A stretch of DNA of 64,000 nucleotides from Escherichia phage Elenatom: the sequence record PP925844.1; one strand, written 5' to 3'. Positions within the stretch are counted from its first letter, which is position 1, and every line of letters begins with the position of its first letter. The position numbers and the translations under genes are program-made. Shown here one piece after another: positions 12,186 through 12,509 of the stretch. The notes under the pieces were generated by a model. That model was not told the origin of the DNA and did not search any database. It saw only the letters and a program-made list of their open reading frames with translations.

Positions 12186-12210
12186 ACCCTTACCTTAAAT
12201 AGATAAGGGT
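12186..12210 (-). promoter_or_regulatory. Hairpin sequestering the gene 49 ribosome-binding site
   Basis: ACCCTTA-N11-TAAGGGT; 3-prime stem arm contains the AAGGG SD just upstream of gp49 ATG. Confidence 0.5.
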
Positions 12211-12215
12211 ATTTA

Positions 12216-12509
12216 TTATTTTCAAGTATTGTAAAACATTCGATGCAATCGTTTATACTGTCGAATCATCTTTTTAGTAGGACGAGAATAGGTTCCTACG
12301 CAAGTGGTCATATGAGGGTCCGTAGAATGTCCTTTAATAAAAAGTTTCCAAACCTTACCGCCATTTAACTTTTCAGTATAAACCAATTCGGTTTTCATTA
12401 AAATGTCCTGTCAGAAAAAGAATTTTGAGTTTTTTCAAGTATTGTAAAACATTTGATGCAATCGCTTATATTGCCGAATCTTTTGGTCAGAAAAAGAAAT
12501 TTGAGTTTC
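12216..12509. repeat. Imperfect direct repeats (about 55 bp, two copies, plus a 22-bp companion repeat) flanking a small ORF
   Basis: Copies at 12216-12277 and 12431-12492 (about 90% identical); short repeat tcagaaaaagaaNtttgagttt at 12410-12432 and 12487-12509. Confidence 0.7.
12222..12398 (-). CDS. Small ORF (58 aa) whose C-terminus duplicates that of the upstream 167-aa gene
   Basis: Hand-translated; ends ...IRQYKRLHRMFYNT, lying in a ~55-bp direct repeat. Confidence 0.3.
   Translation of the reverse strand: MKTELVYTEKLNGGKVWKLFIKGHSTDPHMTTCVGTYSRPTKKMIRQYKRLHRMFYNT

Follow-up and report, generated by a model that had tools for sequence, protein, structure and literature searches.

Where pin gives way to gene 49 in Escherichia phage Elenatom, two neighbouring genes end in nearly the same codons, and a hairpin stands directly ahead of gene 49. 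To which of the two genes did the shared end originally belong, how did it come to be present twice, and what is the function of the hairpin? We analysed the whole stretch of 64,000 nt from sequence record PP925844.1, here called the window. Our answer, which we hold to be very probable, is that the window carries one of four pin–gene 49 alleles, that the tail of its pin derives from a DUF7279 gene, and that the hairpin is the known control element of gene 49. The features on which this answer rests are listed in Table 1.

Table 1. Features of the pin–gene 49 junction in the window, ordered from pin to gene 49
Feature	Position	Strand	Description and basis
pin (PinA, host Lon protease inhibitor), 161 aa from ATG 12920	12435..12920	-	Profile matches, T4 annotation
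R2b, codons of pin for (E)TQISFSD, with which the native part of Pin ends before the fusion point	12486..12508	-	
R1b, holds the captured tail of pin	12432-12488	-	Repeat search, diagonal scan
Captured tail of pin	12435..12482	-	Codons for KIRQYKRLHQMFYNT and stop, inside R1b; PHROG 3272 match
Relic of the original 3′ end of pin, now non-coding	12398..12433	-	Reads KTQNSFSDRTF, then stop; sequence compared with PP01 junction
58-aa gene, DUF7279 / PHROG 3272 family	12222..12398	-	ORF, profile matches, dN/dS, AF2 model
R1a, the small gene's own 3′ end	12219..12275	-	Codons for MIRQYKRLHRMFYNT, stop, 'gaaaa'; repeat search, diagonal scan
Late-promoter-like octamer AATAAATA	12210..12217	-	One mismatch to TATAAATA; annotated late promoter in phage ASO78A
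Leader hairpin	12210..12186	-	ACCCUUAUCU-AUUUA-AGGUAAGGGU; 10 bp stem (one G-U), 5 nt loop
Gene 49 (endonuclease VII, 157 aa)	11707..12180	-	ORF; annotated so in 99%-identical phages and T4

A repeat search of the window pairs 12205-12267 with 12418-12480 as the long repeat R1 (63 nt, 84% identical, spacing 213), and an ungapped diagonal scan places its core at 12219-12267 and 12432-12480 (45/49 identical, score 37). The short repeat R2 pairs 12410-12432 with 12486-12508 (22/23 identical, score 20, spacing 76). Both scores are far above the best scores of 100 dinucleotide-preserving shuffles (mean 10.2, maximum 14), and neither repeat has a further copy in the 64 kb, each being present twice and at this locus only. 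A third candidate, again with a spacing of 76 (12323-12344 against 12399-12420), scored at chance level in the diagonal scan compared with the shuffles and was discarded. The two R1 copies lie on the minus strand in the same frame, so that the upstream gene ends in KIRQYKRLHQMFYNT and the 58-aa ORF in MIRQYKRLHRMFYNT, each followed by a stop, and the order of repeats across the locus is R2-R1-R2′-X-R1. A first-pass annotation had described these elements as a repeat of roughly 55 bp recurring at 215 bp with a 22-bp companion, and had placed the upstream copy at the C-terminus of a 167-aa gene. The long repeat is real, at 49–57 bp, with a spacing of 213 bp, and the short one was recovered as 23 bp. 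The upstream copy does form the C-terminus of that gene, which is pin; the 167-aa reading starts at TTG 12938, and the protein is most likely 161 aa long, starting at ATG 12920, as annotated in T4.

Profile searches assign the shared tail to the small gene. The 58-aa ORF matches Pfam DUF7279 at 62.7 bits (cut-off 24.5) over residues 7-56, tail included, and PHROG 3272 over its full length (residues 1-58, E = 3.4e-34). The window's Pin matches Pfam Inhibitor_I24 at 160.2 bits (cut-off 27) over residues 4-141, and PHROG 2167 covers its residues 1-146; residues 147-161 match positions 44-58 of PHROG 3272. Homologues of the small gene were found by tblastn in 369 phage records, at identities down to 38%. 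Outside Tequatrovirus, the homologues from Dhakavirus JS10, Gaprivervirus RZ, Mosigvirus p000y, SA79RD and SHSML-52-1 and Gelderlandvirus S16 all end in RPTKK(M/L)IRQ(Y/F)KR.HR.FY or a recognisable variant, and the ...IRQYKRLHRMFYNT tail is on the small gene in every genus examined. With dN/dS values of 0.08–0.23 against homologues in other genera, the 58-aa ORF is evidently an old, conserved gene.

Native Pin proteins end differently. Thirteen clusters of 148-aa Pins finish in ...ETQ(I/N/K)SFSDRAF, one of them in SFSDRAL; more distant Pins end in ...EFSSKSF, ...AFSDRGF, ...EFNAKSF or ...ERRLS; and in many IMG/VR loci, ...FSDRAF and its stop lie directly 5′ of the gene 49 hairpin. In JS10, RZ, p000y and SA79RD, a tailed DUF7279 homologue stands beside a Pin or Pin fragment that has no tail. 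Because the DUF7279 profiles and homologues carry the tail, and the Pin profiles and lineages stop before it, the comparison of sequences establishes the tail as native to DUF7279 and secondary in Pin, and the pin of the window, as that of T4, as chimeric. In full-text literature searches, no paper named DUF7279 and none dealt with where the C-terminal tail of Pin came from.

In the best AF2 model of the 58-aa protein (pLDDT 81.7; the other four, 52–63), three beta strands are followed by a C-terminal helix, residues 42-56, which corresponds to the tail. This model had no significant fold match in the PDB (best E-value 0.27), and the weak dsRBD-like matches in that search were not trusted; a BFVD fold search returned the S16 homologue only. 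Searching more deeply for relatives of DUF7279 yielded no more than 8 hits, of which the long ones look like repeat-protein noise, and Pfam profiles detected no nuclease or recombinase domain in the protein. The AF2 model of Pin is poor (mean pLDDT 61; tail 44–51), and we therefore draw no structural conclusion on the fused tail. Elsewhere in Pin, the stretch YEGNLMQAAAEYI (window 12494-12556, residues ~122-134) hardly varies, even where two Pins share only 43–45% identity overall, and is a candidate for a functional, possibly Lon-contacting, core.

The arrangement of the two genes varies among relatives. Mosigviruses have two DUF7279 paralogues, one on either side of pin (locus L005, 906-1076 and 1501-1680; locus L056, 240-410 and 835-1014), and in a metagenomic protein of 191 aa (P0037), the upstream paralogue runs on in frame into Pin. 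Two further 'protease inhibitor' proteins of 180–184 aa (P0032 and P0035) look like N-terminally over-extended gene calls. In Dhakavirus JS10 (locus L004, 1029-1504), the Pin sequence is divided between two ORFs whose order is permuted: ORF77 (57 aa) resembles Pin residues 102-146 (E = 2e-9) and the next, ORF76 (100 aa), residues 9-79 (E = 3e-4), after which come the DUF7279 gene and gene 49.

The short repeat marks where pin used to end. In the Tequatrovirus PP01, which has the native junction, pin ends in ...ETQISFSDRAF (...tct gac cga gcg ttt TAATG), with its stop overlapping the start of the small gene. In the window, 36 nt lie between the present pin stop and the ATG of the small gene; read in the old frame, they give the relic of Table 1, which includes R2a (12410-12432) and whose TAA still overlaps the small gene's ATG as TAATG. 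Because both the old-frame reading and the TAATG match the native junction of PP01, R2 is taken to be the original 3′ end of pin. The first-pass annotation had seen in it the companion of an inserted cassette, a role that this relic does not have. The last codons of the relic have drifted from cgagcg to aggaca (aaggca in AV119), and this drift creates an AGGA (12409-12406) or, in AV119, an AAGG 7 nt before the ATG of the small gene, which may replace the translational coupling that was lost. No gene corresponds to the 40-aa ORF with a TTG start on the minus strand (12398-12520) that finishes in ...KTQNSFSDRTF. It crosses the captured tail out of frame and closes with what is left of the C-terminus that Pin originally had.

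Within Tequatrovirus, the distance from the EWLET codons of pin to the start of gene 49 separates four alleles. Allele A (274 nt) has native pin and the small gene, as in PP01, G50 and LF73P3. Allele B (349/350 nt), that of the window, ZN18, JB75, ASO78A and AV119, has fused pin, the relic and the small gene. Allele C (136/137 nt) has fused pin without the small gene and includes T4, T2, T6, AR1 and Shinka. Allele D′ (105 nt; Pu-Krd-SF3 and 11B_SA_NWU) has native pin with the small gene deleted down to its last two codons, its stop and the following 'aaa'. Over the 1,251 nt of the locus (window 11700-12950), the window is 99–99.6% identical to Pinarejo, ESh30 and ZN18. Just beyond gene 49, nrdD (window 9893-11710, minus strand) is uninterrupted and encodes 605 aa, whereas T4 nrdD holds the I-TevII intron; in Shinka, AV113 and Pu-Krd-SF3, a homing endonuclease gene lies directly downstream of gene 49.

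Since IMG/VR has few Tequatroviruses, the alleles were counted by BLAST with junction-specific 50-nt queries against 50,697 phage records (the GenBank phage set). Counted as database records, which include some RefSeq/GenBank duplicates and are not independent lineages, allele B has 113 and alleles B and C together 365, hence ~252 for C; the A-junction query matched 187 at ≥80% coverage, ~113–119 of which are B at 86% identity, leaving ~70 for A; and D′ has 69. When 60 of the 988 hits were sampled systematically, the allele proportions agreed with these junction counts.

The junctions themselves are precise, and by sequence comparison they are established as firmly as the alleles and the polarity of the tail. 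Relative to A, allele C lacks 137 bp, with pin codon ~145 joined in frame to codon 44 of the small gene. In T4, where the small ORF is missing, the same hairpin and then gene 49 come directly after pin; the window has exactly 213 bases more. T6 equals the window minus 12222-12434 (213 bp), with 0 mismatches over 175 nt across the junction (T6 locus L066, 376-550), and R1b of the window agrees with T6's R1 at every diagnostic site. The joint of allele B, cttgaaaa followed by aactcaaa, lies beside a CTTGAAA heptamer that is present both after R1 and before R2, and leads into the A-type relic and the small gene; it has three A's more than a clean exchange within CTTGAAA would leave. In Shinka, R1 with the tail is chimeric, its 5′ part T4-like and its 3′ part small-gene-like, and R1 copies therefore do recombine.

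From these junctions we infer a sequence of events, with either B before C or C before B. The ancestral locus would have read pin (148 aa, ending ...SFSDRAF), TAATG, the DUF7279 gene (58 aa, ending ...KKMIRQYKRLHRMFYNT), late promoter, hairpin and gene 49. A 137 bp deletion would have fused pin in frame with the last 15–16 codons of the small gene, giving the 161-aa chimeric Pin of T4. In allele B, a fused pin and an intact small gene would have been joined by unequal short-homology recombination beside the shared CTTGAAA heptamer; as a result, the R1 tail segment would be present twice and the relic of pin's old end, R2′, would lie between pin and the small gene. Recombination between the two R1 copies of B would delete exactly 213 bp and yield the T6/T4-type allele. 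Either of two routes, of two steps each, would account for the alleles: a crossover of C with A giving B, or duplication and deletion in A giving B and then C. The match between R1b and T6's R1 fits the crossover of C with A and equally the passage from B to C, provided that the crossover fell in the last 22 identical bases.

Were B the older allele, a 213 bp tandem duplication in A and a 137 bp deletion in the first copy would have produced it, and all C alleles would descend from it. To this order we give somewhat less than an even chance. It accommodates the exact 213 bp that separate T6 from the window and the chimeric R1 of Shinka, in which R1 copies have recombined; however, it takes as many steps as the C and A crossover, C alleles are the commonest and the most diverse, with three tail variants, and no intermediate with a duplicated A (R2-X-R1-R2-X-R1) occurred among the 60 sampled hits. 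A quite different history was put forward in the first-pass annotation, namely duplication and then insertion of a small-gene cassette. Spelled out, it would have two copies of the end of pin arise first and a cassette of foreign origin enter the downstream one, which would make the 58-aa ORF a chimera with Pin's C-terminus. The duplication holds, with the polarity reversed: the tail is native to the small gene, and the copy in pin is the derived one. One can draw R2-R1-R2′-X-R1 by duplicating 76 bp in tandem and placing 137 bp (X) in the second copy, and in T4 it is pin that has the tail, the small ORF being absent. Yet the tail lies inside the DUF7279 and PHROG 3272 profiles; it is found in the homologues of four other genera, among them paralogues that lie upstream of pin and genes of phages with a tail-less Pin; the Pin profiles and most Pin lineages stop before it; and R2′ keeps the native stop of pin in the TAATG overlap of allele A. 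The 38–79% identity of the DUF7279 genes in other genera also speaks against their recent transfer from a class-B Tequatrovirus, and we regard the insertion of a cassette into a duplicated pin end as extremely improbable.

It is also very improbable that the repeats are recombination sites of a mobile cassette, of the PeSL or homing type, that moves the small gene in and out. Such a cassette would suit the presence or absence of the small gene among close relatives in both Tequatrovirus and Mosigvirus, and shuffling of small ORFs mediated by PeSLs is documented in T4-type phages (PMC2839356). The repeats, however, are coding 3′ ends confined to this locus in the 64 kb, a promoter scan placed no sigma-70-like site within or adjacent to R1 or R2, the three deletion alleles have three different junctions and microhomologies, and the 58-aa protein is without a nuclease or recombinase domain. 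Two specific forms were rejected on comparison with the locus. A PeSL cassette combines an early promoter of sigma-70-like type with a stem-loop terminator and is dispersed in many copies that flank ORFs; R1 and R2 are coding, present in two copies each and, in the promoter scan, without a sigma-70-like site in or beside them. Insertion of a mobile element with target-site duplication, or of a homing cassette, does not agree with R2-R1-R2′-X-R1, which is not an element between two target-site copies, nor with a protein that has no nuclease domain. The duplication is the product of ordinary short-homology recombination in a variable T-even region.

Fusion of pin to its neighbour has also happened independently. 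In a metagenomic contig of Mosigvirus type (P0038, locus L065), pin ...EYLERR continues into FHRDFYNVY and a stop, nine residues that form the end of the contig's own small gene, by way of a deletion between two ACGTTT microhomologies; TATAAATA, the hairpin and gene 49 follow. Mosigviruses otherwise have the small gene (SA79RD) or lack it (AV113). One might go further and regard the C-terminal helix of DUF7279 as a portable functional module, captured by Pin at least twice (16 residues in Tequatrovirus, nine in the Mosigvirus contig), a speculation that we consider unlikely. If true, it would imply a functional link between the neighbours, for example a basic/aromatic tail that contacts Lon or the same target, and part of the T4 PinA biochemistry would depend on a tail absent from the native Pin of many phages.

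We now turn to the hairpin. Five nucleotides, UUAUU, separate its stem from the AUG of gene 49. The 3′ arm, AGGUAAGGGU, holds a purine-rich AAGG/AAGGG Shine–Dalgarno (SD) sequence, and the last A of the late-promoter-like octamer is the first paired base of the stem. The first-pass annotation was right to place the gene 49 SD in the 3′ arm of a hairpin, the stem of which has ten pairs and not seven. It was also right to invoke the control known from T4 gene 49: from the octamer to gene 49, the window is base-for-base identical to T4, and T4 gene 49 is listed with e, soc and I-TevI among genes with a sequestered SD and/or AUG (PMC3014915). The control of gene 49 is further treated in PMC2988022, which cites Barth et al. 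1988 (Genetics 120:329).

Fold predictions point to two states of the leader. A 66-nt segment folds at −16.4 kcal/mol (z = −3.43), and a read-through leader is predicted at −18.6 kcal/mol with both SD and AUG paired and an outer A-U helix over the AUG. T4 late promoters usually start transcription ~6 nt after the octamer. A late leader with this predicted start would fold at only −2.0 kcal/mol, with an unstructured centroid. By analogy with T4, early and middle transcripts reading through from upstream would fold the hairpin and bury SD and AUG; those from the abutting late promoter would start inside the 5′ arm, would be unable to fold it, and would be translated. For where transcripts begin and for the effect on translation, this account relies on the T4 literature. 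Upstream of pin there is a strong sigma-70-like promoter, TTTACA-17-TATAAT (11/12), which could be a source of early read-through transcripts; a terminator-like stem is found further upstream, and sites 12989..12961 and 13096..13079 on the minus strand cover the promoter and the stem.

This geometry is conserved. The window and 44 IMG/VR loci, in which gp49 is 50–100% identical to that of the window, yielded 34 distinct leaders of gene 49. All 34 have an octamer of the form NNNAAATA with ≤2 mismatches to TATAAATA, and in 31 of them the last A of the octamer is the first base of a stem of 8–12 predicted pairs. The SD (GAGG, AAGG or GGAA) lies in the 3′ arm or at the loop edge, and the stem ends 0–6 nt before the AUG. 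The 10-pair structure was then scored on 27 of these leaders, aligned with MAFFT independently of any structure: 90.3% of cells could pair, compared with 34–50% when the 3′ partners were slid by 1–3 columns. Double changes occupy 51 cells in 5 of the 10 pairs, and none of 500 shuffles equalled the alignment in pairing or in covariation. A search of Rfam with the gene 49 leader returned no family, only sub-threshold chance hits. In Mosigvirus SA79RD, the leader of the small gene, taaAGGTTTATTATG, resembles the gene 49 leader, gtaAGGGTTTATTATG (locus L056, ~823-837 versus 1038-1056), a similarity that hints at a former copy of the gene 49 hairpin ahead of this small gene.

A consensus scan flags the hairpin as an intrinsic terminator (10 pairs, 4 of them G-C, and a U-rich tail, TTATTATGTT), and several GenBank records, those of JB75 and G50 among them, annotate it as such, which raises the alternative that it mainly terminates transcripts of pin and the small gene and has no role in translational control. 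In 16 of the 34 leaders, however, the stem abuts the AUG without a U tract, so termination is probably not the conserved function. The stem covaries and the tail does not persist, the placement of the SD in the 3′ arm and the promoter on the 5′ arm is kept, and T4 gene 49 belongs to the SD/AUG-sequestered genes (PMC3014915). A mainly terminating hairpin is thus unlikely; partial terminator function is possible in the T4-type leader. The hairpin is the documented translational switch of T4 gene 49, which delays endonuclease VII, and as such is already known.

The locus as a whole is an ordinary one, of modest evolutionary interest. Its duplication is a clear, small-scale record of gene remodelling in T-even phages, and all four stages (native, duplicated, fused and deleted) still circulate in sequenced phages. 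The textbook PinA of T4 is itself a chimera, whose last 15–16 residues come from a neighbouring gene that T4 has lost. T4 PinA is the form used in Lon biochemistry (PMC8835725), and that this form is the chimeric one might be a point that specialists do not expect; studies of PinA and Lon are affected in that native and fused Pin may differ. Annotation is affected as well, the 58-aa gene and the 148/161-aa forms of Pin being called inconsistently. For the hairpin, the sole addition made here is that the T4 gene 49 control element is kept by covariation across the T4 superfamily, in 27 diverse leaders.

Finally, three known systems can be set beside this locus. The window's Pin is like T4 PinA in its match to the Inhibitor_I24 family, its length of 161 aa and its kind of C-terminal tail; in contrast to the Pfam family, its last 15–16 residues lie outside the profile and derive from DUF7279, and ~140 Tequatrovirus records (alleles A and D′), together with the Pins found in other genera, differ from T4 PinA in being 148 aa long or otherwise tail-less. 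The leader shares with that of T4 gene 49, of the class of e, soc and I-TevI, the sequence from octamer to AUG, the pairing of SD and AUG and the late promoter on the 5′ arm. As an element it is without difference, except that it stands after the DUF7279 gene in the window and after pin in T4. As in the PeSL shuffling described by Arbiol et al. 2010 (PMC2839356), close relatives differ by the gain or loss of a small non-essential ORF through recombination at short repeats, and the region is a variable one. Here, however, there is no promoter–terminator cassette, each repeat is the 3′ end of a gene and is confined to this locus, the junctions are heterogeneous microhomologies, and one of the outcomes is a chimeric protein.
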